From an uncultured Actinomycetes bacterium (GTDB lineage: Bacteria; Actinomycetota; Coriobacteriia; Anaerosomatales; CAVRZR01), in assembly GCA_963725795.1 (NCBI GenBank), contig CAVRZR010000003.1, forward strand, positions 112,362-176,361: a stretch of 64,000 nucleotides of DNA, in the 5' to 3' direction. The notes beneath the pieces were generated by a model. It was not told where the DNA came from and searched no databases. It was given only the letters and a program-made list of their open reading frames with translations. The stretch's first letter is position 1. Every line of letters begins with the position of its first letter. A program made the translations under genes and the position numbers. Below are positions 19,123 to 63,383 of this stretch, piece after piece.

Positions 19123-19897
19123 TCAACGCCGGTGCGTTTCCGCCGTTGCGCCCTGCCAGCGCTCCAACCACCACGTGACGGAGCGGTTCATCTCCCGCAT
19201 GTATTCCGAATCGTACTTGCGCCGACGCACTACCTCGGCGTACGTGCCGGCGTCATTGGGTAGACCGTGCGGCGCGTGCATCCGCCCGAGCTCGGCGTCC
19301 GTCTGTCGCAAGTCATCATCTGACAGACGACGATAGCGATCTGTGTGAACGACGTCGCGCGTGTATCGCGGCGTCGGCGCGCGCGTTGCGGCGGCGCGGC
19401 CAAGGCACAGCATGGCGATCGGCAGTGCGCCCGGGGGTAGTCCGAGCAGGTCGGCGTGTTCCTCCCCGTTCTCGAGTATGTCGCCGATGTAGCACGACCC
19501 TATGCCCAACGATTCCGCCGCGATGACGGCGTTTTGCGCTGCGATGATGGCGTCAGAGCAGGCAAGCAACAGGTCTCCGGGACCCAGCGGCCGTCGGCTC
19601 GTCGAGTCAGCCGGTGGATGCCCAGTCGAAGAGGTCGGTCCACTTCTGATAGTCGGCGACAAAGACGAGGACCCAGGGTGCCTTGGCGATGAAGGGTTGG
19701 TCATCGCATGTGATGGCAAGCCTGTCTTTGAGCGCTTGATCTGCGACATCGACGATCGAGTAGAGCATCAGGTTGCCAGCGGTCGGCGCACGAAACGCTG
19801 CCGTCAGGATCGCCTCCTTCTCGGCGTTTGTGATCGGTTCAGGTGAGTACGTCCGCGTCGACGTGCGACTGGCAATCAGATCGAGTGTGGGGTTCAT
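19123..19897 (-). pseudogene. Nitroreductase-family gene with one frame disruption
   Basis: The N-terminal part lies in ORF 19607..19996(-), starting at MNPTLDLIASRTSTRTYS (ATG 19895-19897 after GGGAGAG). The C-terminal part lies in ORF 19123..19749(-) (GDLLLACSDAIIAAQNAVIAAESLGIGSCYIG). The frames meet near 19590-19625. Confidence 0.75.
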
Positions 19898-20057: not shown

Positions 20058-20150
20058 GGAGAGGTGGCAGAGTGGTTGAATGCGGCGGTCTCGAAAACCG
20101 TTTAGCGGGTATCCCCCGTTACGAGGGTTCGAATCCCTCCCTCTCCGCCA
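20058..20150 (+). tRNA. tRNA-Ser (anticodon CGA), class II with long variable arm, CCA encoded
   Basis: Acceptor GGAGAGG/CCTCTCC. Anticodon stem GCGGT/ACCGT with loop CTCGAAA. Variable arm GCGGGTATCCCCCGT, T-arm GAGGGTTCGAATCCCTC, and 3' GCCA. Confidence 0.9.
20090..20150 (+). repeat. 61-bp direct repeat copy 1 (3' part of tRNA-Ser, attL-like)
   Basis: By my base-by-base reading it is identical to 23252..23312. Confidence 0.85.
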
Positions 20151-28236: not shown

Positions 28237-28446
28237 TCGTAGCCACACGGATCTGCAAAACCATCCTTCGGGCCTCCTGAATCATGCTTTCCCGCGGCGA
28301 ATACCGTCCATCGCGCAGGCGTGCAGCGGGACCTACCTTTCGAGGGCCGATGCTAACAACCAGATCGGACCGCGCGTACGCTCGAGCGGCTACGTTCCCC
28401 TTCTGCTACCTTCGGTAGCGAGGGTTTATTCAGTGACGACTGAGGG

Positions 28447-29217
28447 GTGGCGGCTGTGGCCGACAGCGACGCGAGGTTCGTGCGCATCAGGCTCTACAAC
28501 GTCGTGATGGGGCTGTTCCACGCGGCGCAGGGTGTGATCGTTCTGGTGCTGGCGAACAGCTTCTCGCTGCCCGTCACCGCGTCATTCATGACCGGTCCCC
28601 CGGGCACTCCCCCGGCGACACCGACCACGCTCTTCGATGTTCGCGTGGCGTGGGCGGTCGCTGCGTTCCTGTTCATGTCGGCGCTGGCACACTTCACGGT
28701 GTCATCGCCCGGCATCTTCCCGTGGTATGTGCAGAACTTGAAGCTCAATCGGAACTACGCCCGCTGGATCGAGTACTCCTTCAGCTCGTCGTTGATGGTG
28801 ATCCTCATCGCCATGCTTACGGGGCTTTCAGATGTCGCAGCCCTGATCGCGATCTTCGGCGCGAACGCGGCGATGATCCTCTTCGGCCTGCTAATGGAGA
28901 AGTACGAGGAGCCGGGCAATCCCAACTGGCTCTCGTTCGGGTTCGGCTGCATCGTCGGGCTGGCGCCGTGGGTCGGCATCGGCATCTACATCTGGAGTCC
29001 GGGCAGCGCCGCCAACCCGCCCGCGTTCGTGTACTGGATCTTCGTGCTGCTGTTCATCCTGTTCAACAGCTTCGCCATCAACATGGTGCTGCAGTACAAG
29101 AAGGTCGGACCGTGGCGCAACTACCTCTTCGGCGAGTCAAGCTACATCCTGCTCAGCCTGACCGCGAAGTCGTTGCTCGCGTGGATGATCTTCGCGAACA
29201 CGCTCGTGCTGAACTAG
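28447..29217 (+). CDS. Heliorhodopsin
   Basis: ORF 28447..29217 with 7 TM. It aligns along its whole length with the prototype heliorhodopsin 48C12 as I recall it. Shared motifs are GLFHAAQ, LAHFTVSS, RWIEYSFSSS (counterion Glu), FGANAAMILFG, FGCIVGLAPW, FNSFA and the Schiff-base Lys in SLTAKSLLAW. Confidence 0.9.
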   Translation: MAAVADSDARFVRIRLYNVVMGLFHAAQGVIVLVLANSFSLPVTASFMTGPPGTPPATPTTLFDVRVAWAVAAFLFMSALAHFTVSSPGIFPWYVQNLKLNRNYARWIEYSFSSSLMVILIAMLTGLSDVAALIAIFGANAAMILFGLLMEKYEEPGNPNWLSFGFGCIVGLAPWVGIGIYIWSPGSAANPPAFVYWIFVLLFILFNSFAINMVLQYKKVGPWRNYLFGESSYILLSLTAKSLLAWMIFANTLVLN

Positions 29218-30169: not shown

Positions 30170-30260
30170 CGGCCGAAGCCGCAGCGGCGCGCGGTGTCTC
30201 TCCGCGCCGCCACGGCCAGGCGAGCTGGGTGGACGTCTTCCGGCCTGAGGGCGAGGTGGC

Positions 30261-31694
30261 GTGCAAGAGGGGCGTTTCGATCTGGTGGTGCTCGGCTCCG
30301 GCTCGGCTGGTCTGACCGCAGCGCTCGTGGCCCGCGGTCTGGGCGCCAGCGTCGCAATCGTGGAGCGCGGACGGCTGGGTGGCGAATGCACGTGGCGCGG
30401 CTGCGTGCCGAGCAAGACGCTGCTCGCTGCGGCGCGCGCCGCTTCGACTGCGGGGCGGCTCGGCCGGTTCGGCCTCGCGTTCGAGTCGACGGGGGAGATG
30501 GACACCACTGGAGTGATGGCCCACGTGCGTTCTGTGAGCGCGAAGGTCGGCGAGCACGAATCCGCCGAGGTCCTCTCCGGCTACGGCATCGAAGTCTTCA
30601 CAGGCGACGCTCGCCTTGCGGGACCAGGTGAGGTCGAGGTGGGCGACCAGCGACTGACCGCCCGTCGCATCGTTATCGCCACCGGTTCCCGGTCGTTCCT
30701 GCCTTCAGTGCCGGGGCTCGACGATTCGACGGCGCTCACGTCTGACACGTTGTGGGACATCGACGCGCTGCCGCGCAGTCTCGCGATCGTGGGCGGAGGA
30801 CCGGTGGCCGTCGAGATGGCCTCCGCGTTCACGCGCCTGGGAACTCGCGTGACGTTGCTCGTAAGGTCCCAGCTGCTGCGAGCCGAGGAGCCAGAGATGG
30901 TGGAGCGGCTCCGGGCGGTGCTGGAGTCGCAGGGCGTGCAGATCGAGACGGGCATATCGCTCGAGCGCGTCGAACGCCGCGGCGAGGGGGTCGTCCTCAG
31001 CGGAGGCGGCAAGACATTCGAGGTCGAGCGACTCCTCGTCGCCGCCGGACGCGTCCCGGTCATGCCCGACGGACTAGACGTCGCTGGGGTCGAGTTCGAC
31101 GAGCACGGCATCACTACCGACAACCACATGCGGACCACGGCTCGCCACATCTACGCCGCCGGAGACGTCACGGGTCCCTATCGTTTCACGCACGCCGCCG
31201 AGCGCGAGGGGATCGCGGCGGCCACGAACGCGCTCTTGCCCGTCGGACGCACGGTCGAGTGGGACGACATTCTCTGGGTCCTGTTCGCCGAGCCCGAGCT
31301 GGCGCATCTCGGCATGACCGAGGATCAGGCAAGAGCCGTCCACGGGGACGACATCGAAGTGCGCCGCTACGAGTTCTCGAAACAAGACCGCGCTCGAGCC
31401 GAGGCCGTGACGGACGGCTTGGCCAAGTACGTGCTCGATCGCCGTGGGCGTATCCTCGGCGCGCACATTCTCGGCGAGCGAGCGGGCGAGCTCATCCACG
31501 AGGCCGCGATCCTGCTCCACAACGACCTGCCCCTGTCCTCGCTGTCCTCGGTGCTCCATGCGTATCCGACCTTCGCCGACGCGGTGAAGCGGCCAGCCGA
31601 CGCGGAATACGCGCAACACCTCCGAGGCAACCCCGCGGTGCGAGGCGCGTTGCGAATCCTGGTGGGGCACAACGACTTCAGGGCCGAGCCGTGA
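30261..31694 (+). CDS. FAD-dependent pyridine nucleotide-disulfide oxidoreductase (dihydrolipoyl dehydrogenase / mercuric reductase class)
   Basis: ORF 30261..31694. Motifs DLVVLGSGSAG, redox-active GGECTWRGCVPSK, IVGGGPVAVE, AAGDV and the C-terminal interface motif HAYPTFAD. Confidence 0.85.
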   Translation: MQEGRFDLVVLGSGSAGLTAALVARGLGASVAIVERGRLGGECTWRGCVPSKTLLAAARAASTAGRLGRFGLAFESTGEMDTTGVMAHVRSVSAKVGEHESAEVLSGYGIEVFTGDARLAGPGEVEVGDQRLTARRIVIATGSRSFLPSVPGLDDSTALTSDTLWDIDALPRSLAIVGGGPVAVEMASAFTRLGTRVTLLVRSQLLRAEEPEMVERLRAVLESQGVQIETGISLERVERRGEGVVLSGGGKTFEVERLLVAAGRVPVMPDGLDVAGVEFDEHGITTDNHMRTTARHIYAAGDVTGPYRFTHAAEREGIAAATNALLPVGRTVEWDDILWVLFAEPELAHLGMTEDQARAVHGDDIEVRRYEFSKQDRARAEAVTDGLAKYVLDRRGRILGAHILGERAGELIHEAAILLHNDLPLSSLSSVLHAYPTFADAVKRPADAEYAQHLRGNPAVRGALRILVGHNDFRAEP

Positions 31695-32290
31695 CGCGCG
31701 CGCGCAGACAGCAGCCCGTCGTCGCCATCATGGCCCGGTTCCCCAGACCAGGCGAAGTGAAGACGCGACTGGTTCCCGTCTTGGGAGCGTGACGGCGCGG
31801 CGGCTCTGCACCGCGAGATGGCCGCCCATTGCGTCGCGCGAATGCGGCCCCTGCATGCAAGCGGGGACGCGCGCGTCGAAGTGCATGTGGAGGGTGGCTC
31901 GGCTCGCGCCGTACGCCGATGGCTCGGCGACTGGCCGCACTTCGTGTCGCAGACAGAGGGGGACCTCGGCGATCGGCTGCGAGCGGCGCTCGCCGCGGCC
32001 ATTGCTGCCGGCGCTCCTGCGGCAGTAGTCCTTGGCTCGGACTGTCCAGAGGCGCGCGCGACGCACGTGCGCGCCGCGCTGCGGCAACTCGCGACGCACG
32101 ACGTGGTGATCGGTCCCGCACACGACGGCGGCTACTGGCTCTTGGGGATCAGCGCCGAGGCTGCGCCGATGGCGCTGCCCGAGCTGTTCGAAGGGATCGT
32201 TTGGGGCGGAAGCGAGGTGTTCGGTGACACGATGCGCCGCGCCCGAGCTGCCTCTCTGAAGGTCGCGGTCGCGGATCGTCTCGCCGATGT
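31691..32290 (+). CDS. DUF2064 / TIGR04282-like glycosyltransferase-fold protein, frame disrupted, 3' end uncertain
   Basis: GTG 31691 overlaps the upstream TGA. AIMARFPRPGEVKTRLVPVLGA is in one frame, then GAAALHREMAAHCV...VLGSDCPE...GPAHDGGYWLLG in ORF 31818... The shift is at 31790. The reading frame has no stop before it overlaps the next gene, so the end is not defined. Confidence 0.6.
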
Positions 32291-33018
32291 GGATCGGCCA
32301 GACGACCTTCCGGTTTGGAGCGCCGAGCGCGAGCGGGAGCGCACGCCGCCCGACGTCGGTTTCGGTCGTCATACCCGCGCTCGACGAGGCCGGCGGCGTC
32401 GGCGCGGCGGTGAGCAGCGCTCTCGAGGGAGGCGCGTGCGAGGTGATCGTGGTCGACGGGGGCAGCACCGACCGCACGCGCGAGATAGCGGCGGCGGCCG
32501 GTGCGCGCGTGATCGAAGCGCCCCGCGGGCGGGCAGGCCAGATGAACGCTGGAGCCGCTGAGGCCAAAGGCGAGGCGTTGGTGTTCTTGCACGCCGACAC
32601 GAGATTGCCGGCCTCCTCGGCAGCTCTCGTACGCGACGCGCTCGGAGTCGAAGGGACGAGCGGCGGCGCCTTCCGATGGGGAACGGACGACACGCCTCTG
32701 GCGGCGCTCTTCAACTTCGCTGGTCTGACGCGCCTCGCTGTCTTCCGTGTGCCTTATGGCGACCAGGCGCTGTTCTGCGCACGAAGAACCTTCGAGGATC
32801 TGGGAGGGTACCCGTTGCAGCCCGTGATGGAGGACTGGGAGCTGGCCAGGAGCCTGTTGCGTCTGGGTTCAGTGCCCATCTTGCGTGAGTGTGTGCTCAC
32901 ATCCAGCCGCCGATGGAACCGGGCTGGTGTTGTCCGTGCGACGGCGACCTACCTGGCCATCATCGCGGGATATCGGCTGGGCGTCGATCCGGCGGTGCTC
33001 GACGGCTGGCGACCGTGA
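32287..33018 (+). CDS. GT2 glycosyltransferase, TIGR04283-like
   Basis: ORF 32287..33018. Motifs VVIPALDEAG, VIVVDGGSTDRT, RGRAGQMNAGA, FLHADTRLP and YGDQALF. Confidence 0.75.
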   Translation: MWIGQTTFRFGAPSASGSARRPTSVSVVIPALDEAGGVGAAVSSALEGGACEVIVVDGGSTDRTREIAAAAGARVIEAPRGRAGQMNAGAAEAKGEALVFLHADTRLPASSAALVRDALGVEGTSGGAFRWGTDDTPLAALFNFAGLTRLAVFRVPYGDQALFCARRTFEDLGGYPLQPVMEDWELARSLLRLGSVPILRECVLTSSRRWNRAGVVRATATYLAIIAGYRLGVDPAVLDGWRP

Positions 33019-33032
33019 CAAGGGAGCGACTC

Positions 33033-33761
33033 ATGCAAGCAGCGGAGATAACCCAGTCGGTCGTCGAGCGCTTTTCCCGTGTGGCACTCGGCATCGACGC
33101 CGGCTTCGGCGTCTGGACGGGGAACCGGTGCGCCGAGTATCTCGGCTACGGCGACGTGCTCGACGACATCCCGCTCGTCTCGCTCGAGTCGTTCGTTGGG
33201 GTCGGGAACCCGGCCTCGTTCGCAGGGCTGGTTCCGGGCGAGCGAGTACTCGATGTCGGCTGCGGCGGCGGCCTCGATGCTTTTGTAGCTGCCGCAGCGG
33301 TAGGACCCGAAGGCGAGGTCGTCGGTGTGGATATCACGCCGGAGATGATCGAGCGGGCGCAGGAGGGCGCCATGGCGCGCTCATCGTCGGTACGGTTCCT
33401 CCTTGCGGACGCCGCCGAACACTTGCCCTTCGAGGACGCGAGCTTCGATGTCGCTCAGTCGAACGGCTGCCTCAACCTGTCGCCTCACAAGCGTGAACTG
33501 CTCACCGAGGTCCATCGTGTGCTTCGTCCCGGCGGCCGTCTTGCGTTGTGCGATGCCGTCATGAAGCCGGAGAGGGCTGCCGAGGTATCCGCCGATCCCG
33601 ACAACTGGTCGCTTTGAATCTCAGGGGCTCTGCCGGCGGCAGAGTTGAAAGCGATGCTCGAGGCCGTCGGGTTCCTTGCCGAGCAGATCGACGAGCGGCG
33701 CAACCCGCGCAACGACTACACCAGGTGGGCGTCGTTCCTCGCGACGAAGCGCTGGGATTGA
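33033..33761 (+). CDS. ArsM/AS3MT-like SAM-dependent methyltransferase with in-frame TGA (candidate Sec) at 33615-33617
   Basis: ATG 33033 follows AAGGGAG. SAM motif VLDVGCGGGLD and SNGCLNLSP. The ORF track stops at TGA 33615-33617, but the same frame continues as ISGALPAAELKAMLEAVGF...KRWD to TGA 33759-33761. The context NWSL-TGA-ISGAL matches the LWGECLGGAL As-binding Cys region of AS3MT. Confidence 0.7.
33626..33646 (+). other. SECIS-like hairpin 8 nt downstream of the ArsM-like UGA
   Basis: GG-CTCTGCC-GGC-GGCAGAG-TT: a perfect 7-bp stem plus two G-U pairs and a G-rich apical loop. The loop begins 20 nt after the U of UGA. Confidence 0.5.
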
Positions 33762-33783
33762 GTCAGGCGGCGGACCGGACCGG

Positions 33784-34725
33784 TCACAGCAGCGCGCCGT
33801 TTCAACTCGAGCCTGCGCCGGCCGTGCAGCCGAAGCAGTGAGGTCCGTTGACTATCCTGCGCGTCGCGAGGCTCTCCGCGTCGAATTCCCACACGGTCTG
33901 AGCATCTCCCAAGACGGGTCTTCCCATGCCGAGGTTGAAGTCGCAGTCGTAGAGCCGCCCGTCCCAGCCGACCTCGACCTGGTGCCTGCACTGCAGCAAC
34001 GGGACTACATCCGGATTGAACGCTTCTTTCAAACCCCGCATGTAGCGGTCGTAGCCGCCCTCGGCGGCCAGACGGTCGCCGAACCGGCCGACCGGCATGT
34101 TCGTCATCGTGAGCAGATGCGTGAAGACGACACCGAACCGCTCCTCGAGTTCCTCGCGGAATAGCGCTTCCAGCGCCTCTTGAGGCTCGGGCAGCGTCGT
34201 TCCGACGGGATTGTAGATGAGGTCGAGCCGCAGTCCGCCTTCCGTGCCATAGCCGAGCTCGTTGAGAGTGAGCAGCGTTTGCACGCTCACATCGCGGACG
34301 CCCGGGCCCCTGATCGCACTGACGTTGCGTTCGGTGTAGCAGGGCATGGACGCCAACAGCTCGATCCCGGATGAGGCGTAGGCCTCGCCTAGGGCGGCGT
34401 ACCGGGGGTCTGCGAGCACCGTGAGGTTCGTGCGGAGTTGCACCCGGTGCCCGTCGGCCCGTAGCGCGCGAAGGAAGGGGAGAAGGTGTGGATTGAGTTC
34501 CGGGGCACCGCCGGTGATATCGACGACCGAGGGACGGATGTCCGAGGCCACTTCGGCCACTCGCCACATAGTCTCGAGGTCCATCATCTCCGTGCGCGAA
34601 GGCGAGCTGCTCACATGGCAGTGCGCGCAGGCCTGATTGCACTGGAGCGTGACGCTGACAACGAGGGCATGCAGGTCCATCCCCCGAAGCGCCCGCCCGT
34701 CCTCGAGAGAAGACCCGCGACTCAA
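33784..34725 (-). CDS. arsS: Arsenosugar-type radical SAM protein ArsS (TIGR04167-like), candidate Sec near the C-terminus
   Basis: ORF 33802..34725(-). Motifs CNQACAHCHV and the C-terminal Cys-rich domain ...GPHCFGCTAGAGSS. It then reads TGA (33802-33804) followed in frame by NGALL and a second TGA (33784-33786). This family is annotated as a radical SAM (seleno)protein. The start codon is uncertain (TTG 34725). Confidence 0.75.
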
Positions 34726-34814
34726 GGTCGTTCATCTGCGCCGCTATCCGGCCGGCGGCGTCTCGCGGCCGCGCCGGCTGTTGGGATTGGGGCAGGTTAC
34801 TCGAGCCGCAGTCC

Positions 34815-36155
34815 TCATGGAGCCATCGGAGGGTCTTGCCCGGGGACAGGCTGCTCCCCGGGAGGTGCAGGTGCCGGTGCCGGCATGGTCGGCGCGGGTG
34901 CCGAGTCCGTAGGCACGGGTGCTGCTCCCGGTGCAGTAGGCATTGGCGCCGGCGGCGCGTAGTACGGCTGAACAGGTTGCGGGACTGCGTAGACCTGCTC
35001 GGCGGGCGGCTGCGTTCGAGTAGTGCGGCCCCACAGCGCAAGGGCAGTCGCTCCTGTCCCGATCGTGACCGCTGCAAATCCGAGCAGCCAGCCGACGAAC
35101 GGCACCGCCCCAACGACCCAGATGACGATGATGCCAAGCCCCATCGCAAACACCGGGTGCCACTTCGCATGCATCCATCCCAGGACGGTCCTGCCGAGTG
35201 CGAGACCGCCCACGATCATCCCTACCAACGCGAGCAGCCAAACCGCCGCGAGCAAAACGAACGCGATCCACCACCCGCCGACCAAGAGGCCCAAGAAGAA
35301 GACGCTGGCTGCCACCGGCCACACGGCAAATAGCAGCGCGAAGCCGATTCCCAGACTCAGCCAAGGACGCGCCACGAGCACGTCGGACGCAATCACGGCG
35401 CCGCCCCGCCCGAGGAAGACAACGGCGATACCGAGGAGCAGCACGCCTATCAGGCCGCGGATCCATCCGAGCACGGCCAAGAAGGCACCGAGCGCCGGAC
35501 TCGGCGCGCGGCGCGTCGTGCGGATGATCGGCTCGTGGCGCGTTGTCTGTCCCGCCACCTGGCCCTGCACGTCAGCCTGCCGGCGGCTGGTGTAGTCCAG
35601 GTCCCCGTCGATGCTGCCGGAGGAGGTGACAGTGACCTTATCGACCTCGGCGGTCACGTCGCCTCCGACCGAGGATGCGATCGTAAGCGAGTTCGCTCCG
35701 GCGAGAACGTTGCGACCGACCGGTCCTTCCAGCGAGACAGTCTGACCTGCGACCAGCGCGTCTCGACCCACCGAGCCGTCCCCGGTCACTCTCACCGTCG
35801 CCCCAGCGAGCATCACGTCCTCGGCGACGCTGCCCCCGATCTCGACGTCTTGGCCCGCGGCCCGGACGGCGTCCGCAACCGAGCCGGTGATCTGCACGGT
35901 CTGTCCGGACGCGACGACCGTCCCGTTGACATCGCCGGAGATCGAGATGGTCTGGCCGAAGGCGAACACGTCGCCATCGACCGTCGCTGGTACGTCGATG
36001 CTGGTGCCGAAGAGGAACAGATCGTCGGAAACAGGGTCGGAAACGACGACGTTCGTGCCAGTCCGCTGTTCGAACGCGAGAGCTTGGCTTGGGGCGACCA
36101 GTGCGAGGAGCGCGATCGCCGCTACCCCTAGGGAGCAGAGTCGGAATCGTGTCAT
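34815..36155 (-). CDS. Exported bactofilin-like (polymer-forming beta-helix repeat) domain fused to a multi-TM region and a Pro-rich tail
   Basis: ORF 34815..36212(-). ATG 36153-36155 follows GGAGGTGG. Signal peptide, repeated G(D/S)V...G stretches, about 6 TM helices, and a C-terminal PAP-rich tail. Confidence 0.65.
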   Translation of the reverse strand: MTRFRLCSLGVAAIALLALVAPSQALAFEQRTGTNVVVSDPVSDDLFLFGTSIDVPATVDGDVFAFGQTISISGDVNGTVVASGQTVQITGSVADAVRAAGQDVEIGGSVAEDVMLAGATVRVTGDGSVGRDALVAGQTVSLEGPVGRNVLAGANSLTIASSVGGDVTAEVDKVTVTSSGSIDGDLDYTSRRQADVQGQVAGQTTRHEPIIRTTRRAPSPALGAFLAVLGWIRGLIGVLLLGIAVVFLGRGGAVIASDVLVARPWLSLGIGFALLFAVWPVAASVFFLGLLVGGWWIAFVLLAAVWLLALVGMIVGGLALGRTVLGWMHAKWHPVFAMGLGIIVIWVVGAVPFVGWLLGFAAVTIGTGATALALWGRTTRTQPPAEQVYAVPQPVQPYYAPPAPMPTAPGAAPVPTDSAPAPTMPAPAPAPPGEQPVPGQDPPMAP

Positions 36156-36393
36156 GGTGATCCACCTCCACGCGGGGCGGCTCAGCGACGGGCGCATCGT
36201 GCCTGAGCACAAGGCGCAACCGAACCGTCCCGATGCAAGCCGGACGAGCGGGTTGCGTACTGGAGATAGGTACCCTACTTGCGCCGGTAGGATTCGCCTC
36301 GGCAGCGGGACTCAGGATCGCGCCGCAGGTAAGGCGCCTTTCCTCGGCCCAGTGATCGCCCGACGGCGAACGCGGATCAGAACGCGGCGCCTC

Positions 36394-38514
36394 TTATCCC
36401 GCACGCCTCAACGTTGCTAGCGCGCGTAGCAGTGTGCGCGTTCCGGCACTGCCGAAGTCGATCGTAACGCTGTCTTCGCCGGAGGCGATCACGACGCCGG
36501 CGCCCCAGCTCGCGTGGAAGACGCGGTCGCCCACTCCGAGCAGGTCTGTCGTGCCGACTTCGGAGGTCTCCATGTGTTGAACGGAGCCCAGCTCCTCGAG
36601 GAACCGAGTCGCGACGGCCTTCTTCGGGCTTTCGAGCTCGTCGGCGAGCTTGGAGACGGAGCGCGCGAGGCTGGCTACGACGTTGTCGCCCAGTTCCAGC
36701 ACGTCAGCCGGGTTCAGGCGTCGGACGATGTAGAGCCGCAGGGCGCTTCGCACGGCATCGAAGGCCCGCGCGAGCACCAGCGCTCCGCCGGGGCCCGCCG
36801 CCGCAAGGCAGCAGATGGCCGCCTCCGTTTGGCTGGAGCGACGGTTCGCGGTAAGGATGACCACCGCCGAGCCCACCAGCGAGTCGTCCGAATCGCTGAT
36901 CGCATCCGATGCGTTCTTGCGGATGGACTCGGTGATTCGGTCGGTGATCGCGACCAGGCACGCATTCATGACCGTGACCGTGGTCTCCGCATCCGCAGGG
37001 GCCCGCCAGGTGAAGGCGTCGAGCACCGCACCGGCGGCTTCGGCCGACAGACTCGATCCTTCATGGATCGCCTGTGCGACGAGCGGGGCGAAGGTCTTCG
37101 CGTTGACCTTGAGCCACGTGGCGAGTCGGGCGACAGACTCTGCGTCTTCGGCCACCAGAAGGCGCAGTGCCACCGCGTCCTCGAGTCCGGCTGCCTCTGT
37201 GCTGCCGGCTAGAACAGCGCCTGAGCCGGCAGTAGCGAGATCCAGGTTGAGCATTGCGTTACCTCCTCGGTTGGCGGAGCGGCCCTTGGCCACCGCCTTG
37301 TCGAGACGAGTACCGTGCGGGCGCTCGGTTGACGGCGCCTTCACCAGCTGGGGAAATGCGGCCAGCACCATGTCGACGAGCTGGTCGACAGGGCGCGTGA
37401 GAGCGTCGGTGGCCGGGATGCCGAGTTCGAGCTCGTACAGCGCGATCGCCGCGCTGACCTCGGCGTCGGACATCTCTTCGTGATTGACAGTCAGGCCGAT
37501 GACCCGGGTGTCGGAGAAGGTCTCGATGAGACGGATCTCGCTGGCGGGGTCCGGCATCGGGGCGTCCGGGAAGTCGGCACGTGTGCGACGTGCGGGGGCA
37601 TGCTGCAGGATCACGCCCTGGGGCTGGCTGCCGCGCAATATGAAGCCCGACGTCAGGTAGGCCGGATGACTCAGCGCACCCTGGCCCTCGATGACGATCA
37701 CGTCCGGCTTCACCGCTTCGTAGGCCTCGACGACCGTGGCTTCCATCTCACCGGCGCAGAACTGAGATGGGACGGCGTCGAGCGCAACCGCGTGACGGGC
37801 GCCTTGGATGAGGCCGGTTTGTCCCGTCGCAACCAAGACGGTCTTGATGCCGCGCTCGTTGAGCGCTCGCGTGAGTATCGTCGCCGTGGTGCGCTTTCCG
37901 ATCGCGCAGTCCGTGCCCATGACCGCGATGCGGGGGCAAGCGACCGTCGCGATGCGGCCGCTGAACGTTCGCAGGTCCCTCTTGCCGCGCGGACGGCGCA
38001 CATCCAGGATCGTCACGTCGTGTTTGTCGCTTGCCGCCGAGAACTCCGGGTCGTCGCCGAGGAACTCGTGAAGGCCGCTCACGACGTGCATACCACGCGC
38101 CATAGCGTCGAGTATCACGCCACGCTCGGCTTTCGAGAGCATACCGCTGGCCGGCGCGATCCCGTAGATCAGATAGTCGGGGACGCACCCTGCCAGTGCG
38201 ATCGCGTGCTCGAGGTCGGTGCAGATCGGCACGCCTTCGGACTTGTGACCGAGCACCTCATGGGCGTCGAGGCCCGACTGTGAGCTGTCGATCACCGAGA
38301 GGATCTCGTATCTCTCGGAGTGGCGTACCAGGCCGTTGGCGGTCTTTCCGTCGACAGCACCGAAGTTAGCTTCGCAGTAGACGATTGCAGTGCTTCGCGC
38401 GGGCGCAGGGGCGGGGAGTGGGGCGCGCGGCGGCGACAGAACCGTGAGCGCAGGCGCCGCGGGAGTGGGCGCCGAATGGAACGATCTGGTAGAAGTGGAA
38501 TGGACTTGAGCCAC
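36394..38514 (-). CDS. DUF1611 (DgcN-like) family protein, copy 2, fused to a C-terminal extension of about 300 aa
   Basis: ORF 36394..38514(-), 706 aa, with GTG start after GAGGAG. Residues about 40-400 are colinear with copy 1 (IVYCEANFGAVDGKTANGLVRHSERYEI, VMGTDCAIGKRTT). The extension ends with GDRVFHASWGAGVVIASGEDSVTIDFGSAGTRTLL. Confidence 0.75.
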   Translation of the reverse strand: MAQVHSTSTRSFHSAPTPAAPALTVLSPPRAPLPAPAPARSTAIVYCEANFGAVDGKTANGLVRHSERYEILSVIDSSQSGLDAHEVLGHKSEGVPICTDLEHAIALAGCVPDYLIYGIAPASGMLSKAERGVILDAMARGMHVVSGLHEFLGDDPEFSAASDKHDVTILDVRRPRGKRDLRTFSGRIATVACPRIAVMGTDCAIGKRTTATILTRALNERGIKTVLVATGQTGLIQGARHAVALDAVPSQFCAGEMEATVVEAYEAVKPDVIVIEGQGALSHPAYLTSGFILRGSQPQGVILQHAPARRTRADFPDAPMPDPASEIRLIETFSDTRVIGLTVNHEEMSDAEVSAAIALYELELGIPATDALTRPVDQLVDMVLAAFPQLVKAPSTERPHGTRLDKAVAKGRSANRGGNAMLNLDLATAGSGAVLAGSTEAAGLEDAVALRLLVAEDAESVARLATWLKVNAKTFAPLVAQAIHEGSSLSAEAAGAVLDAFTWRAPADAETTVTVMNACLVAITDRITESIRKNASDAISDSDDSLVGSAVVILTANRRSSQTEAAICCLAAAGPGGALVLARAFDAVRSALRLYIVRRLNPADVLELGDNVVASLARSVSKLADELESPKKAVATRFLEELGSVQHMETSEVGTTDLLGVGDRVFHASWGAGVVIASGEDSVTIDFGSAGTRTLLRALATLRRAG

Positions 38515-38803: not shown

Positions 38804-39190
38804 ATGGACATCAATAAGGATCTGATAGCTGCGTCCTCGACGCCGATCGTTCTTGCCATCCTGGCCGAGGCGGACAGCTATGGCTACGCCATCCTCCAGC
38901 GCGTCCGCGATCTTTCCGGAGGTCACCTCGAGTGGACCGACGGGATGCTCTATCCCGTCCTGCATCGGCTCGGTAGGCTCGGCTACGTGGAGGCGCGTTG
39001 GGAAGTCGCGGAGAGCGGTCGTCGCCGCAGGTACTACAGGATCACGACGCAGGGCCGAGCGCATCTGGCCGAACAGCAGCGGCAGTGGCAGGCCGTGGAC
39101 GACACGCTGCGGGGCATCTGGCACATGATGTCCCGCGCGGTCCCAACTCCGGACCCTGCGCCGATCGCCCTGAATCCACAAGGAGCGTGA
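38804..39190 (+). CDS. PadR-family transcriptional regulator
   Basis: In-frame ATG 38804 in ORF 38717..39190. Motifs IVLAILAEADSYGYAILQRV, LYPVLHRLGRLGYVE and RRYYRITTQG. Confidence 0.85.
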   Translation: MDINKDLIAASSTPIVLAILAEADSYGYAILQRVRDLSGGHLEWTDGMLYPVLHRLGRLGYVEARWEVAESGRRRRYYRITTQGRAHLAEQQRQWQAVDDTLRGIWHMMSRAVPTPDPAPIALNPQGA

Positions 39191-44162: not shown

Positions 44163-46528
44163 AGCGGACCGTCCGCTCTCTTCACGCGAATTGGCGGGCA
44201 TCGATGCGTATTGGCGTGCCGCCAACTACCTTTCGGTGGGCCAGATCTACCTGCTCGACAATCCGCTGCTCACTCGTCCGCTTGTGGCCGAAGACGTCAA
44301 GCCGAGGCTCCTTGGCCACTGGGGAACCACTCCGGGGCTGAACTTCATCTACGTGCACCTCAACAGGATCATCAACGCCTTCGATCTCGACATGATGCTC
44401 GTGACCGGGCCGGGGCACGGTGGTCCGGCGATCGTGGCGAACACCTGGCTCGAAGGGACCTACACGGAGCGTTACCCGGAGGTCTCGCGGGACGCGGACG
44501 GCATGCGTCGCCTCTTCAAGCAGTTCTCCTTTCCCGGAGGCATCCCGAGCCACGTTGCCGCCCAGATCCCCGGGTCCATCCACGAGGGCGGCGAGCTGGG
44601 CTACTCGCTCTCGCATGCGTTCGGAGCGGCCTTCGACAACCCCGACCTGATCGTCGCCTGCGTTGTCGGCGACGGCGAAGCGGAGACAGGGCCGCTGGCC
44701 ACGTCGTGGCATTCCAATAAGTTCCTGAACCCGCAGACGGACGGCGCCGTCCTGCCGATACTGCATCTCAACGGCTACAAGATCGCGAACCCGACCGTGC
44801 TCGCGCGCATACCCAAAGAGGATCTCGAGGCACTACTGATCGGCTACGGCTGGAGCCCCCGCTTCGTCGAGGGCGACGATCCGGAGCCGACTCACCAGGC
44901 AATGGCCGCAATCCTCGACGAGGTGGTTGGCGACATCCAGGATATCCAGCGTGAATGTCGCAGCGACAACGCTTGTGTCGCCCGTCGCTGGCCGATGATC
45001 GTGCTCAGGACGCCCAAAGGGTGGACCGGTCCCGACCGTGTCGACGGCCATCAGGTCGAAGGAACGTGGCGCTCCCATCAGGTGCCGGTCGACAAGGCGC
45101 GACAGAACCCGGCTCACCTTCGCGTCGTCGAGGAATGGATGCGTAGCTACCGCGCCGAGGAGCTCTTCGACGAATCCGGCGCACCCAGACCCGAGATCGC
45201 CGCGCTCGCGCCCCGCGGTACGCGCCGCCTGGGCGACAACCCTCATGCGAACGGCGGCATCGCTTCGTCGCGAGCTCAAGATGCCGGACTTCACCGACTA
45301 CGCCGTCGCCGTCCCCGAGCCCGGCCGGTCGACCGGTGAGGCCACGCGCGTGCTTGGGACGTTCCTTCGGGACATCATGGCCGCGAATATGGACCGCTTC
45401 AGGATATTCGGCCCGGACGAGACCGCGTCCAACCGTCTTGATGCGGTGTACGAGGTCAGCAAGAAGACGTGGCTTGCCGAGTACCTGCCCACCGACGCCG
45501 ACGGCGGGGAGTTGTCACCTGACGGTCGTGTGATGGAGCTCCTCTCGGAGACCACCTGTCTCGGCTGGATGGAGGGCTACCTGCTCAGTGGCCGACACGG
45601 ACTGTTCGGAACGTACGAGGCCTTCGTCCACATCATCGATTCGATGTTCGCCCAGCATGCGAAATGGCTGGACGTGAGCAAGAACGACGTGCCGTGGCGC
45701 GCCCCCGTCTCTTCGGCGAATTACCTGCTCTCCTCGCATGTATGGAGGCAGGACCACAACGGCTTCTCCCACCAGGACCCCGGCTTCATCGACATGGTGG
45801 TGAACAAGCGCGGCGATGTCGTCCGCGTGTACCTGCCGCCGGACGCGAACACGCTGCTTTCAGTTGCCGACCACTGCCTGCGCAGCACCGACTACGTGAA
45901 CGTGATCGTCGCGGGCAAGCAGCCCGCGCTTCAGTTTCTCGACATGGACGCCGCAGTGAAGCATTGCACGGCCGGCCTCGGCATCTGGGAGTGGGCGAGC
46001 AATGATCGGGGAGCGGAGCCGGACGTCGTGATGGCGTGCGCGGGCGACGTGCCGACGCTCGAGACGCTCGCCGCCGTCAGTCTCCTTCGGCAGGAGGCGC
46101 CCGACCTGAAGGTTCGGGTCGTGAACGTCGTCGACCTCATGACGCTTCAGCCCGCCGAGGAGCATCCGCACGGTCTGCCGGACAAGGAGTTCGACGAGAT
46201 CTTCACCACCGACAAGCCCATCATCTTCGCGTATCACGGCTATCCGTGGTTGATCCATCGGCTCACCTACAGGAGAAACAACCACGACAACCTTCACGTG
46301 CGCGGCTACAAGGAAGAAGGCACGACCACCACGCCCTTCGACATGGTCGTGCGCAACGATCTCGACCGATTCCACCTCTTCGCCGACGCCGTCGAGCGTG
46401 TGCCCTCGCTCGCGCCCAGGCGCGCCTATGTGAAGCAGTTCGTCCGCGATAAACTCATCGATCATCGCGAGTACATCGAGGAGTTCGGTGAGGATATGCC
46501 CGAGATCCGTGAATGGACGTGGGAGTGA
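44134..46528 (+). CDS. xfp: Xylulose-5-P / fructose-6-P phosphoketolase, one frame disruption
   Basis: ORF 43753..45339 from GTG 44134 or 44143 ([55 protein letters not shown]), then ORF 45038..46528. The junction is near 45262-45270 (NPHANGG / [10 protein letters not shown]). Confidence 0.9.
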
Positions 46529-59205: not shown

Positions 59206-60780
59206 CTACGTCTGGCGCCCGGCCCTGCGCCGAGCCACCGAGCGCTCGTGCTCTCCGGGCAGCGGGCACGTGTTCGGACCCTCAACGAGGGCTCTGCACC
59301 TCGTGTCGATCCCCTTCAGGATTCCGCCGAAGACGAAGTGGTGGAACGGCTTCACCGAATACCAGTACGCGCGCCCCAGCACGCCTTTCGCGTCGAACAG
59401 CGCCGTCTGGCGGACCAAGGTCCGATCGCCGCGGGTCGCGAGTTCGTACTGCAGCCACCCTCGGCCGGGCAACACCATCTCGGCTCGGAGTCGCAGCAGC
59501 CTGGGCGAATCGACACGCTCGACGACCCACCACTCGAGATGATCGCCCTCCACGAGCGCGTACGGATCGCGCCGACCGCGTCGCCTTCCCGGCCCGCCGA
59601 GAAGCAGATCGATGAAGCCTCGCAGATCCCACAGGGTGTCGTAGGCGTACCATCCGTTCTCGCCGCCGATGCACGCGACCGGATCGAATGCGGCTTCGGG
59701 AGGGCAGTCCACGAGCATGGCTCGCGAATCGACGTACCTCCCTTCGCGCACCGGGTGTTGAGGTGCGGCAGAGTCGCCGAGTTCGTCCACCCACATGATT
59801 CGATCGAACAGGGCGTCCTCGGCCTCGAACGCGCGGTGCATCGCCTCCTCGGCGCCGATAGGCTTCACCTGCGGGAAGTCACGCGAGGCTGAATCATCGG
59901 TCACAACCGTCGGGAATCTGAGCGACTCTGCGAGCTGCCGTCCCACTGTCGCTTGTTTGGGCGTGAAGAGGTAGAGCCACCAGCCGGAAAGCCCTGGAGA
60001 CAGGATCGGCACCGGGATGATGAGTCGCCTCAGTCCGCGCCGCGCCGCATAGAGAGCCAGCAGCCCCCCGTACGTGACTATGTCAACGCCGCCGATCTCG
60101 TAGATGCGGTGCGCCTCGTCGGGATCGAGTTCGAGGTCGATAGCCGCGAGCAGGTACGAGACGACGTCGGCGATCGCGATCGGCTGGGCAGGCATCCGCA
60201 CCCAGCGCGGAGTCGTCATGACGGGCAGCTTTTCAGTGAGATTCCGAATCATCTCGAACGACGTGGAGCCACTGCCGATCACGATGGACGCGCGGAACTC
60301 GACGACCGGCACGCCGGTCTCGGACAGGATCCGCCCCACTTCCTGACGGCTGGCCAGGTGCTCCGAGAGCACGTCTCGCTCTTGCCCGAGCCCGCCCAGG
60401 TATACGATGCGCCGCACGCCGGCGGCCGCCGCTTCCTCCGCGAAGATCCGTGCGGCCGTTCGGTCGCGGGCGGCATAGTCGGCGCCTGCACCGAGCGTGT
60501 GCACCAGGTAGAACGCCGTGTCGACGGTCTCGAGCGCCGAGCGCACGGCAGCTCGGTCCATGACGTCCACCGTGACGAGCTCGACTCCCGGCATCGCCGG
60601 TACCCGCGACGTGTGTCGCGCTGCCGCTCGAACGCGATAGCCGTCCGATGCGAGACGCGGCAGGACGTGCGAGCCGATGTAGCCCGACGCTCCCATGACG
60701 AGCACCACCGAACCGGCCCCGTCTACCAACACGATCCTCCCCGACCGCGAACGGGTTGCTTCATCACGCATTTCCGTCAA
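59206..60780 (-). CDS. NAD(P)-binding (NmrA/atypical SDR) domain fused to a DUF2867-like domain
   Basis: ORF 59206..60780(-). VLVMGASGYIGSHV Rossmann motif and a C-terminal half of about 200 aa typical of DUF2867 partners. Confidence 0.65.
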   Translation of the reverse strand: MTEMRDEATRSRSGRIVLVDGAGSVVLVMGASGYIGSHVLPRLASDGYRVRAAARHTSRVPAMPGVELVTVDVMDRAAVRSALETVDTAFYLVHTLGAGADYAARDRTAARIFAEEAAAAGVRRIVYLGGLGQERDVLSEHLASRQEVGRILSETGVPVVEFRASIVIGSGSTSFEMIRNLTEKLPVMTTPRWVRMPAQPIAIADVVSYLLAAIDLELDPDEAHRIYEIGGVDIVTYGGLLALYAARRGLRRLIIPVPILSPGLSGWWLYLFTPKQATVGRQLAESLRFPTVVTDDSASRDFPQVKPIGAEEAMHRAFEAEDALFDRIMWVDELGDSAAPQHPVREGRYVDSRAMLVDCPPEAAFDPVACIGGENGWYAYDTLWDLRGFIDLLLGGPGRRRGRRDPYALVEGDHLEWWVVERVDSPRLLRLRAEMVLPGRGWLQYELATRGDRTLVRQTALFDAKGVLGRAYWYSVKPFHHFVFGGILKGIDTRCRALVEGPNTCPLPGEHERSVARRRAGRQT

Positions 60781-63157
60781 GACCGTGCCCGCCGAACGCG
60801 TTGCGCAGCGCCGTCAGCACACGGCCGGTGTAGCTCGGCTTCTTGAAGCTGTCGATCCTGAACCGCAAGGCGGTCTCGATGCCGGGCACGGGCAGGCCCG
60901 CATCGCGCGCCGCGTCAACGGTCCACTCGCCCTCGCCCGTGTGGCGTACCGTGCCAGATACGGCCTCGAGATCGTCCCCCAGTGTCGCGTACGCGTCGCG
61001 GAGCCATCCCATCAGGCGCGACTGAACGACGCTGCCGTGCTGGTAGATGTCTGCGACTCGCCTAAGGTCGAGTTCGTACGGACCGTCGTGCATGAGCGCA
61101 AAGCCGTCGGCGACCGCCTGCATCATCCCGTACTCGATACCGTTGTGGACCATCTTCACGAAATGGCCTGCGCCGATGCCGGGGAAATGCGCGTAGCCGC
61201 CGGGGACCGACACGTCGGCGAGCATCGGCTCGAGCCGCTCGAAGTCCTCTCGGCTGCCGCCGAGCATGAGACACGCTCCGTGCCGTGCGCCGGCCGGGCC
61301 ACCGCTCGTGCCGCAATCAACGAAACGGATGCCTCGCTCTCCCAGTCGCGCGGCACGCTGCCCCGCACTGGAGAAGTGGCTGTTGCCACCGTCGACGATG
61401 GTGTCCCCAGGCTCCAACACGTCCGCGAGCCCAGGCACGTGCTCCCCGTCTTCACCTGCTTTGCCGAATAGCATGTCGTCCACCGCGGCACCGGCGGGCA
61501 CCATGACCCATACGATGCGTGGAGCGGGTAGCAGCGCCGCCACGTCGGCCATCGTGCGCGCAGCGATGATGCCCTCGGCCTCCATCGCCTCCGCACGCGA
61601 CGTCGTCCGATTGAAGGCGACGACACGCCAGCGGTGAGCGTGAAGATTGCGCGCCAGCCCTGCACCCATCTTGCCGAGGCCCACGATGCCGACCGAGCGC
61701 TGCGCTGTCGCCGATCGGCTCGAGATCGCCGCCGCGGCGCGATCGGCAATGTCCGGGCAACCGTGTTCGTACGTCTCGAGCGGCACGACTCCGTCACGCC
61801 AGGCCTCAACGATCGGGTCGACGAACCGCCAGCCAGCTTCAATCTCCGCCGAAGAGACGAAGAGCGTCTGATCTCCTCGGAAGGCGTCATACAGCAGCCG
61901 CGCGTATTCCTCGACGTATTGCGCCTTCTCGCCCTTCTCGTAGAGGAAGAACGAAAGCGTGTGCTCCTCGACCTCGGACGAGAAACCGGGCTTCTTGCTG
62001 TAGAAGACGATCTCGATCGATTCCGCCGGCTCCAGCGAGAACACGATCCTGTTTGGATACCGCTGCTCGGGCTCGCAGAGGCACAGCGGCGGCTGCCGGA
62101 ACCGCACAACGATCCGTTTGTCGGGAGTACCGACGGCCTTTCCCGACTCCATCATCACCGGCACGCCGGCCCAGCGCTCGCCGCGCAGCTCGGTCTCGAG
62201 GCGATAGTAGGTCTCGCTTTGCGAGTCCGGCGCGACCCCCTCGGCGGCCAGATAGCCCTCGTACTGAGCTCGGAAGGTGCAGCGAGCGACCTCACCCGGC
62301 GTCATCGGGCGGAGTAGAGTCTCCATCGCCGCCGCCCGCGCTGCACGGATGTCCAGCGCATGCTTCGAGGACGGTTGCTCCATGGTGACGAGCGCCAGCA
62401 TCTCCAGCAGGTGGTTCTGGCCGACATCGCGCAGCGCGCCCATCCGGTCGAAGGAGGGACCCCGGCTGCCGACGTCGACGCGCTCGAGCAGCGAGATGTC
62501 GATGCGCTCGATGGCCTGGCGGTTCCACTCGGCCTCGAACAGGTTGTTCGTGAACCGGAAGTCCATGATGCCCTGGAGCATCTCCTTGGCGAGGTAGTGG
62601 TCGATGAAGTACGTCTGTTCCTCACGGAGCAGTTCGTTGACCCGCGTGACGAGTTGCTTGCTCGAGTCCTCGTCGACGCCGAGCGGCTTCTCGATCAGGA
62701 CGCGGGTCCACCCCGTCAGGTCGCTGCATGGTGCCGAGAGGCCCTGGGCGGCGAAGCCTTCAAGGATGTCGAGGTAACTCGACGGCGGGACGGCGAGGTA
62801 GAAGAGCTTGTTCGTGCACAGCCCCCACTCCTCATCTATCGACTTCAGGTAGAGGGAGAGGCGGCCGTAGGAGTCGGGCTTCATCAGATCGCCGTCGAAG
62901 TAGCGGAAGAGGTCGAGGAACTTGCTGCTGGCCCCAGGAGTCTCTTCGGGGCTCTTCTCGGCGAGGAGTCCGCCGACGTATTCCCGCAAGCGTGCATCGT
63001 CCCAGCCGCGACGCCCGAAGCCGACGATACAGGTGCGGTCGGGCAGCAAGTCCCGCGAGAACAGGTGGTGGAGCGAGGGCACGATCTTTCGCCTCATCAG
63101 GTCTCCGGTCGCGCCGAAGACCACGAGGATGGTGGGGGACATCTCTTGGCCGGGCAT
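60764..63157 (-). CDS. zwf: Apparent fusion of glucose-6-phosphate dehydrogenase (Zwf) and short-form 6-phosphogluconate dehydrogenase (Gnd/YqeC-like)
   Basis: Single frame ORF 60764..63310(-). N-terminal half: VVFGATGDLMRRKI, EKPLG, IDHYLAKE. A linker of about 15 aa follows. C-terminal half: VGIVGLGKMGAGLARNL, VDGGNSHF, CGTSGGPAGARHGACLMLGG, GAGHFVKMVHNGIEYG. No stop or start codon lies between the halves. ATG 63155-63157 follows AGGAG. Confidence 0.75.
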   Translation of the reverse strand: MPGQEMSPTILVVFGATGDLMRRKIVPSLHHLFSRDLLPDRTCIVGFGRRGWDDARLREYVGGLLAEKSPEETPGASSKFLDLFRYFDGDLMKPDSYGRLSLYLKSIDEEWGLCTNKLFYLAVPPSSYLDILEGFAAQGLSAPCSDLTGWTRVLIEKPLGVDEDSSKQLVTRVNELLREEQTYFIDHYLAKEMLQGIMDFRFTNNLFEAEWNRQAIERIDISLLERVDVGSRGPSFDRMGALRDVGQNHLLEMLALVTMEQPSSKHALDIRAARAAAMETLLRPMTPGEVARCTFRAQYEGYLAAEGVAPDSQSETYYRLETELRGERWAGVPVMMESGKAVGTPDKRIVVRFRQPPLCLCEPEQRYPNRIVFSLEPAESIEIVFYSKKPGFSSEVEEHTLSFFLYEKGEKAQYVEEYARLLYDAFRGDQTLFVSSAEIEAGWRFVDPIVEAWRDGVVPLETYEHGCPDIADRAAAAISSRSATAQRSVGIVGLGKMGAGLARNLHAHRWRVVAFNRTTSRAEAMEAEGIIAARTMADVAALLPAPRIVWVMVPAGAAVDDMLFGKAGEDGEHVPGLADVLEPGDTIVDGGNSHFSSAGQRAARLGERGIRFVDCGTSGGPAGARHGACLMLGGSREDFERLEPMLADVSVPGGYAHFPGIGAGHFVKMVHNGIEYGMMQAVADGFALMHDGPYELDLRRVADIYQHGSVVQSRLMGWLRDAYATLGDDLEAVSGTVRHTGEGEWTVDAARDAGLPVPGIETALRFRIDSFKKPSYTGRVLTALRNAFGGHGLDGNA

Positions 63158-63383
63158 GGGGCTCCTGCTCGTCGAAGGGACGCGCGGGCGCGAGGGATCC
63201 CTGCTCGCGCGGAAACAGTCACTGCGGATTCTTCCCATTGTCCTTGTGCGACGTTGCCGACGAGTCCAGGGACCGCACCCAACGCCGACATCCAGCGCAG
63301 TGCGGGACAATCAGCGGATTGCGGGGACAATAACGGAAGCGCCCCGCGGGGCTGAGGATCAGGCGACGGATTCGGGGTGGACG

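Follow-up and report, generated by a model that had tools for sequence, protein, structure and literature searches.

Two convergent genes of an arsenic cassette from an uncultured Actinomycetota bacterium with in-frame UGA codons predicted to encode selenocysteine

The window examined here, that is, the whole stretch of DNA analyzed (64 kb from a contig 593 kb or more in length), belongs to an uncultured Actinomycetota bacterium and carries an arsenic cassette in which a short gene resembling those of arsenite methyltransferases (ArsM) converges with the gene of ArsS, a radical S-adenosylmethionine (SAM) protein of arsenosugar biosynthesis. Each of these two genes holds one in-frame UGA codon, which on comparative grounds is very probably decoded as selenocysteine (Sec). 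Both are supported as candidate selenoprotein genes by a TGA conserved among orthologs, a cysteine (Cys) paired with the Sec in homologs, a conserved coding frame downstream, and a conserved hairpin with compensatory changes; these features, like the synteny of the cassette, were observed directly, and they point to the actual insertion of Sec at both codons.

In-frame UGA codons of the methyltransferase and of ArsS

The methyltransferase gene starts at ATG 33033, with the sequence AAGGGAG just 5' of it, and its first in-frame stop is the TGA at 33615-33617. A first-pass annotation, made from the letters of this DNA, had stated that the frame stays open beyond this codon; translation confirmed it, with 47 further codons (ISGALPAAELKAMLEAVGF...KRWD, that is, ISGALPAAELKAMLEAVGFLAEQIDERRNPRNDYTRWASFLATKRWD) up to the TGA at 33759-33761. 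An exact look-up of the methyltransferase sequence of the window returned no record. In the protein search the approximately 60 closest homologs (68-100% identity) ended at residue 194/195, with 80% of the query covered; full-length homologs first appeared below 50% identity, and no Cys-containing member was met above ~50% identity.

DNA was obtained for 16 further distinct orthologous loci, which together with the window make 17; a metagenome scan gave 7 loci, and in a scan of genome contigs, dominated by a generic SAM-motif pattern, no relative exceeded 44% identity. Homologs with Cys or UGA at the position in question, which the first-pass annotation had proposed to look for, were found in both forms. 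The Sec codon is TGA in 17/17 of the orthologous loci, and the same column is an invariant Cys in 34 full-length homologs, in the context LW[AS]ACI[AG]GA. Moreover, the frame after the UGA is kept as protein in the orthologs (ISG[AS]LPAA[EG]L...GF...NPRNDYTxWASF), with third positions that vary, and it is closed by TAG in 8 of the 17 loci and by TGA in the other 9. Locus L097, from a more distant clade (49% identity), has QWSD-TGA-IAGAV; in 14 relatives that belong to other phyla and are 39-44% identical the column is TGA in 12 and Cys in 2, their groups including Spirochaetaceae, Nitrospirota, Thermodesulfovibrionia, Acidobacteriota and Chloroflexota.

The methyltransferase has a class I SAM-binding domain, as judged by its Pfam matches (PF13847, Methyltransf_31; PF13649, 25; PF08241, 11), and the SAM-binding motif VLDVGCGGG is present. 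Its best NCBIfam matches are of the ArsM type (NF041537 with 202 bits, NF047649 with 186 and PRK11873 with 176.2). The TIGR04290-type methyltransferases brought up in the first-pass annotation turned out to be absent from the best 25 of 62 NCBIfam matches, which places any such match at an E-value worse than 1.7e-10 and well short of every cut-off. Residues 41-216 align to the solved ArsM structures of Cyanidioschyzon and Chlamydomonas. In this alignment U195 falls on Cys224 of CmArsM (4fr0; the number was obtained by counting back along the printed alignment) and on the Cys of GECLAGAL in CrArsM (5evj), the shared segment being GEC[LA]GGAL. Cys224 of CmArsM, corresponding to Cys206 of human AS3MT, is an arsenic-binding Cys, and the earlier placement of the UGA in that column was correct. 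Cys33, Cys146 and Cys173 are also invariant in the clade, Cys33, which may correspond to Cys44 of ArsM, lying outside the PDB alignment.

On the opposite strand, ArsS ends in ...HCFGCTAGAGSS-TGA(33804-33802)-NGALL-TGA(33786-33784), the letters of the window before the Sec being CFGCTAGAGSS, and Sec is residue 293 or 308 depending on whether the ATG or the TTG start is used; the true stops of the two genes are 22 nucleotides (nt) apart. The GSS-UGA-NGALL-UGA ending read in the first pass thus stood, and the pattern G[ST]S-TGA-NG[AS]L[LSVT]-TGA was found in all 15 ortholog loci with a readable ArsS 3' end. Of the best 120 ArsS homologs, 51 end right before the Sec codon and 66 go on as GSS-C-xGAL. 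With its tail included the protein scores 354.2 bits on TIGR04167 (cut-off 300), matching profile positions 5-303 of 303; Pfam recognizes Radical_SAM (PF04055) and DUF3641 (PF12345, 158 bits), and the radical SAM motif CxxxCxxC is CNQACAHC. This family match agrees with the statement in the first-pass annotation that ArsS proteins include selenoproteins with Sec in the C-terminal tail, as does the motif GxxU given for TIGR04167 in a 2026 review (PMC13188914).

Hairpins downstream of the two UGA codons

The stem found downstream of the methyltransferase UGA is made of 7 perfect base pairs (bp), CTCTGCC/GGCAGAG (33628-33634/33638-33644), plus a closing G-U pair (33627/33645); it begins 9-10 nt, and the loop 17 nt, 3' of the UGA, and the whole hairpin lies inside the coding sequence, in codons +4 to +10. 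The perfect 7-bp stem had been noticed before, whereas the offsets given then (8 nt for the stem and about 20 nt for the loop) had to be corrected. Pairing in the 8-bp helix reaches 93.8% across 16 close orthologs, and one of its pairs is U-A in 9 sequences and C-G in 5; this covarying pair joins the last base of an Ala codon with the middle base of a Glu/Gly codon. With five distant relatives added in register (n = 21 sequences), 95.2% of the cells were paired and three pairs were changed on both sides; the covariation observed was reached by 0 of 500 shuffles, and slid controls were all far lower. The constraint is also seen in codon usage: codon -1 (Leu) is CTT in 16/16 sequences and codons +5 to +8 hardly vary at their third positions, compared with an average third-position entropy of 1.25 bits for the gene's remaining invariant four-fold codons. 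In addition, relatives with a different peptide carry other hairpins at the same offset (GGUCCCG-GUU-CGGGAUC, GAUCCCG-GUC-CGGGAUC and CGAGGAA-GGUC-UUCCUCG). Structure 3' of this UGA, on which the first-pass proposal had been staked, is kept in the orthologs with compensatory pairs.

The hairpin of ArsS overlaps the true stop and the 22-nt spacer, because only five residues come after the Sec; the GA of that stop codon belongs to the hairpin. It was found in 13 of 14 orthologs, and the sequence past it is fully divergent. Its stem variants are compensatory (GACC/GGUC, GUGACC/GGUCAC, GACCC/GGGUC, GAGCC/GGCUC and UGAGCC/GGCUCA), the loop being constantly of the GGUC type and beginning 20-22 nt past the Sec codon. 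These hairpins were scored one sequence at a time, as an ungapped MAFFT alignment left the stem variants out of register. The first-pass annotation had placed the element correctly at 33773-33785 and had called it weak, a description that did not hold: it is the better conserved noncoding element, with compensatory stem variants.

According to the distance rule of bSECISearch, a stem-loop resembling a selenocysteine insertion sequence (SECIS) lies approximately 16-37 nt from the UGA and has a G in the apical loop; the loops, at 17 nt in the methyltransferase and at 20-22 nt in ArsS, are inside this range. Both elements resemble the bacterial SECIS of the Escherichia coli fdhF type, whose loop is GGUC, in that a hairpin directly follows the UGA and presents a G-rich loop (GGC, GGA, GGUC) at 17-22 nt. 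They differ from it in their short stems (4-9 bp), in that no bulged U is evident, and in that the ArsS element is partly 3' untranslated, the SECIS running across the true stop codon.

Evidence for and against selenocysteine, and the place of both proteins among known systems

Several results weigh against Sec decoding or against an ArsM-like function. Folding of both regions downstream of the UGA codons, which the first-pass annotation had proposed, gave no significant result: single sequences folded no better than their shuffles (z = -0.5 and -0.4; 66% G+C DNA). Support for the hairpins thus comes from sequence comparison and not from folding energy, since single-sequence z-scores are uninformative in G+C-rich DNA. 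No SECIS-type family was matched in Rfam, either at the gathering threshold or at a permissive E-value, and the conservation of the methyltransferase hairpin could be partly due to the conserved peptide ALPAAE. Neither the 64-kb window nor the ~100 loci fetched yielded selA, selB, selD or tRNA-Sec, and the E. coli proteins SelA, SelB and SelD, used as tblastn queries, gave no match in the window or in any locus, although their absence from 64 kb of a contig of this size says little. Regarding the enzyme itself, the methyltransferase falls under all curated NCBIfam cut-offs (PRK11873/NF008823: 176.2 vs 263 bits). In ArsM, Cys72 (GCG motif) and Cys44 are needed for the first methylation; the equivalent of Cys72 is missing here, Val57 being in its place (GVGNP), and the column of Cys174 is occupied by Gly145, with Cys146 next to it (SNGCLNL vs SNCVCNL). 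Owing to these two replacements arsenite is not established as the substrate of this enzyme. Arsenic is the putative substrate of the clade; given the altered Cys set, it may be As(III) or monomethylarsenite (MAs(III)).

Indirect support for the use of Sec in a relative comes from locus L089, which contains the same methyltransferase-ArsS pair: 9 kb away it encodes a Bcp-type peroxiredoxin (19149-19619, + strand) with TGA at the peroxidatic position (FFPRAGTPG-U-CHEA), in which TPG-U-C is the known TxxU motif of Sec-peroxiredoxins, and which public calls split into open reading frames (ORFs) of 46 and 101 amino acids (aa).

If both UGAs were ordinary terminators, the products would be a methyltransferase of 194 aa and an ArsS with ...GSS as its last residues, the similarity downstream being incidental. 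All public gene calls found for the methyltransferase clade do stop at this codon, both genes of the window do have a UGA as their true stop, and the Sec machinery was not seen in the window or the fetched loci. However, the 47 codons are conserved in frame and are homologous to the core of the solved ArsM structures and of the Cys homologs; the first stop is TGA in 17/17 orthologs, whereas the second stops are mixed; both hairpins covary; and the 194-aa product stops 21 residues short of the end of the ArsM-aligned stretch, presumably without the last beta-strands of the class I methyltransferase fold. Premature termination is, on this evidence, very unlikely.

We assign a similarly small probability to readthrough without selenium, by near-cognate insertion of Trp or Cys or by insertion of Cys via the Sec machinery. 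What the comparison of sequences reveals is translation beyond the UGA and not which residue is inserted, and to that extent it would suit such a readthrough; nevertheless the column is strictly Cys in homologs without TGA, a structured element lies at the distance used by SelB, and Sec is well established in both families (PMC13188914). That UGA might be reassigned globally was also contemplated and was ruled out, as the methyltransferase and ArsS themselves terminate on UGA.

Under Sec decoding, the hairpin with its loop 17-22 nt past each UGA would recruit SelB and Sec-tRNA(Sec), and translation would go on. Sec195 would replace the arsenic-binding Cys in the short ArsM-like enzyme, which would supply methylated trivalent arsenic; ArsS would adenosylate dimethylarsenite (DMAs(III)) to 5'-deoxy-5'-dimethylarsinoyl-adenosine (DDMAA), its CxxC...GSSU tail carrying a second selenol; and two transferase-like proteins and a disulfide reductase, described below, would act around the methylation and adenosylation steps. 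The supply role is assigned to the methyltransferase because ArsS has been reported to adenosylate DMAs(III) to DDMAA (PMC13598754; Cheng et al. 2021, as cited in PMC12159101), an activity known for the cyanobacterial enzyme (PMC13598754).

The first-pass annotation had left it undecided whether a Sec form of the methyltransferase was on record; Sec-ArsM with UxxG has already been described. "Arsenite methyltransferase, NF008823, UxxG" is found among the experimentally verified selenoproteins in Table 1 of PMC13188914, which cites Fomenko et al. 2007 for it, and which also includes three ArsM-domain fusion selenoproteins with UxxG (NF041536, NF041537 and NF047649); Sec forms of PRK11873 were counted in the GOS selenoproteome (PMC2398784). 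The U-I-S-G and G-S-S-U of the window agree exactly with UxxG and GxxU. Neither selenoprotein is thus new as a kind, both belonging in established Sec families. The methyltransferase shares with Sec-ArsM (PRK11873/NF008823) the class I ArsM-type methyltransferase domain and a UxxG Sec at the arsenic-Cys column, and models of the fusion type are its best NCBIfam matches; it differs in being only 242 aa long, in lacking a C-terminal domain and any fused AhpD, DUF2284 or UXPK domain, in having Val for Cys72, Gly-Cys for SNC and the clade-invariant Cys33 and Cys173, and in that its clade always adjoins ArsS. What is modestly new is this short, ArsS-linked methyltransferase clade with an altered Cys set, whose Sec state is apparently obligate among the sequences compared. 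The ArsS of the window is an ordinary Sec-form member of TIGR04167 (formerly rSAM_SeCys; "arsenosugar biosynthesis radical SAM (seleno)protein ArsS"), with which it shares the tail C-x-G-C-T-A-G-x-G-S-S-[U/C]-x-G-A-L and the TIGR04282/TIGR04283 neighbours.

The same pairing is known from the cyanobacterial arsenosugar pathway (NF038099 ArsM and ArsS; Synechocystis), for which the expected flow is As(III) to DMAs(III) to DDMAA; in the window, however, the methyltransferase has Sec instead of Cys, reaches 72 bits on NF038099 (AsSugarArsM) against a cut-off of 400, and belongs to a probable Actinomycetota host. Acetate kinase shows 72% identity to its counterpart in an Actinomycetota MAG and 65-66% to those in Coriobacteriia MAGs. 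More tentatively, and with somewhat less than an even chance of being right, the methyltransferase may represent a distinct, obligately Sec-dependent subfamily that partners Sec-ArsS and has a rearranged ligand set of Cys33, Cys146, Cys173 and Sec195, with no Cys72. Two successive selenoenzymes would in that case make C-As bonds, with the FAD disulfide reductase next to them recycling their Se-S or S-S bonds.

Even with these additions the known picture is unchanged; the window offers a clean example and an annotation gap, and no new mechanism. Both proteins are systematically mis-annotated, and the methyltransferase clade is captured by no curated model: the public calls found for it are all truncated because it reaches no curated cut-off. 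Two adjacent selenoenzymes in one organoarsenical pathway would tie the supply of selenium to arsenic methylation and adenosylation in an uncultured member of the Actinomycetota, and a methyltransferase with fewer Cys, in which Sec naturally replaces the arsenic-binding one, could aid in dissecting the mechanism of ArsM.

The gene cassette and its surroundings

The cassette begins with a flavin adenine dinucleotide (FAD)-dependent disulfide reductase, followed by the TIGR04282 and TIGR04283 genes and by the methyltransferase, with ArsS convergent (Table 1). The oxidoreductase also adjoins the cassette in loci L088, L094, L095 and L096, and it may have a role in recycling Se-S or S-S bonds. In relatives the methyltransferase-ArsS pair is accompanied by the same gene set, sometimes rearranged and with a DedA/VTT gene. 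The short ArsM-like methyltransferases of the relatives from other phyla, which come from GTDB species representatives (L001-L013) and have TGA in the Sec column in 12 of 14 cases, carry a hairpin at the same offset as that of the window, and no ArsS or glycosyltransferase gene was found within 10 kb of them.

Table 1. Positions in the window of the two candidate selenoprotein genes, their UGA codons and hairpins, and the other genes of the cassette.
Feature	Position	Strand	Details and basis
ArsM-like SAM-dependent methyltransferase	33033..33761	+	242 aa including predicted Sec195; true stop TGA 33759-33761; translation, Pfam/NCBIfam and orthologs
In-frame UGA of the methyltransferase, probably read as Sec (U195), motif U-I-S-G	33615..33617	+	TGA in orthologs, Cys in homologs, alignment to CmArsM Cys224
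SECIS-like hairpin of the methyltransferase	33627..33645	+	8-bp stem 33627-33634/33638-33645; loop GGC 33635-33637
ArsS radical SAM (seleno)protein	33784..34680	-	298 aa from ATG 34680, 313 aa from TTG 34725; stop TGA 33786-33784
In-frame UGA of ArsS, probably read as Sec, motif G-S-S-U	33802..33804	-	TGA in orthologs, Cys in homologs, GxxU motif
SECIS-like hairpin of ArsS, GACC-GGUCC-GGUC	33773..33785	-	Spans the true stop and the 3' untranslated spacer; loop 20-21 nt past the UGA
FAD-dependent pyridine-nucleotide disulfide oxidoreductase (MerA/Lpd-like)	30261..31694	+	First cassette gene; NF004991 397 bits, under cut-off
TIGR04282-family (DUF2064) "arsenosugar biosynthesis glycosyltransferase"	31691..32561	+	135.5 bits vs cut-off 134; frameshifted here
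TIGR04283-family "arsenosugar biosynthesis glycosyltransferase" (GT2)	32287..33018	+	207.8 bits vs cut-off 182; position kept in orthologous loci

TIGR04282 (DUF2064) and TIGR04283 (GT2) form one fused gene of ~442 aa in L088 and L096, and when these fusion proteins were compared by tblastn with the window, the region 31691-33018 was split over three frames. One of the frame shifts, near 31773-31790, is a 1-nt insertion in the window relative to L106, a separate assembly with 92% nucleotide identity to the window; the other, near 32350, is common to L106. Over 6.9 kb (window 30233-37122 vs L106 7467-14356) the two assemblies are separated by eight isolated 1-nt indels, several of which interrupt a gene that is whole in the other assembly; the FAD oxidoreductase, for instance, is broken in L106 and whole in the window. 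Such a distribution accords better with errors of long-read assembly than with decay of the genes, and these errors would explain the "many frameshifts" remarked upon in the first-pass annotation. The contrast drawn there between those frameshifts and the two in-frame TGA codons at Cys positions was upheld, the TGAs being common to the assemblies and the indels not; L106 carries both TGAs and both hairpins, and it was taken as a proxy for read support. That the TGAs are themselves sequencing or assembly errors, or marks of decaying genes, is hardly credible in spite of the scattered gene-breaking 1-nt indels of the window and L106, as they are in-frame codons of the substitution type that recur unchanged in 17 independent assemblies and metagenomes and also occur in other phyla.

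When the window was searched for other TGA codons lying in frame between coding-like segments, a single weak candidate emerged, at 39188. Adjoining ArsS there is a predicted membrane protein of 465 aa (34815-36212, - strand), whose N-terminal half is rich in repeats and whose C-terminus is rich in Pro/Ala; no NCBIfam family match was obtained for it. A phosphoketolase ORF (44999-46525, + strand) is devoid of the N-terminal XFP_N domain, and the domains of glucose-6-phosphate dehydrogenase and 6-phosphogluconate dehydrogenase share a single open frame of 848 aa (60767-63310, - strand); both are probably further artefacts of frameshift or fusion. The window also contains a heliorhodopsin gene (28444-29214, + strand; NF038020, 322 bits vs cut-off 100) and, as its sole tRNA, a tRNA-Ser(CGA) at 20058-20150 (+ strand).

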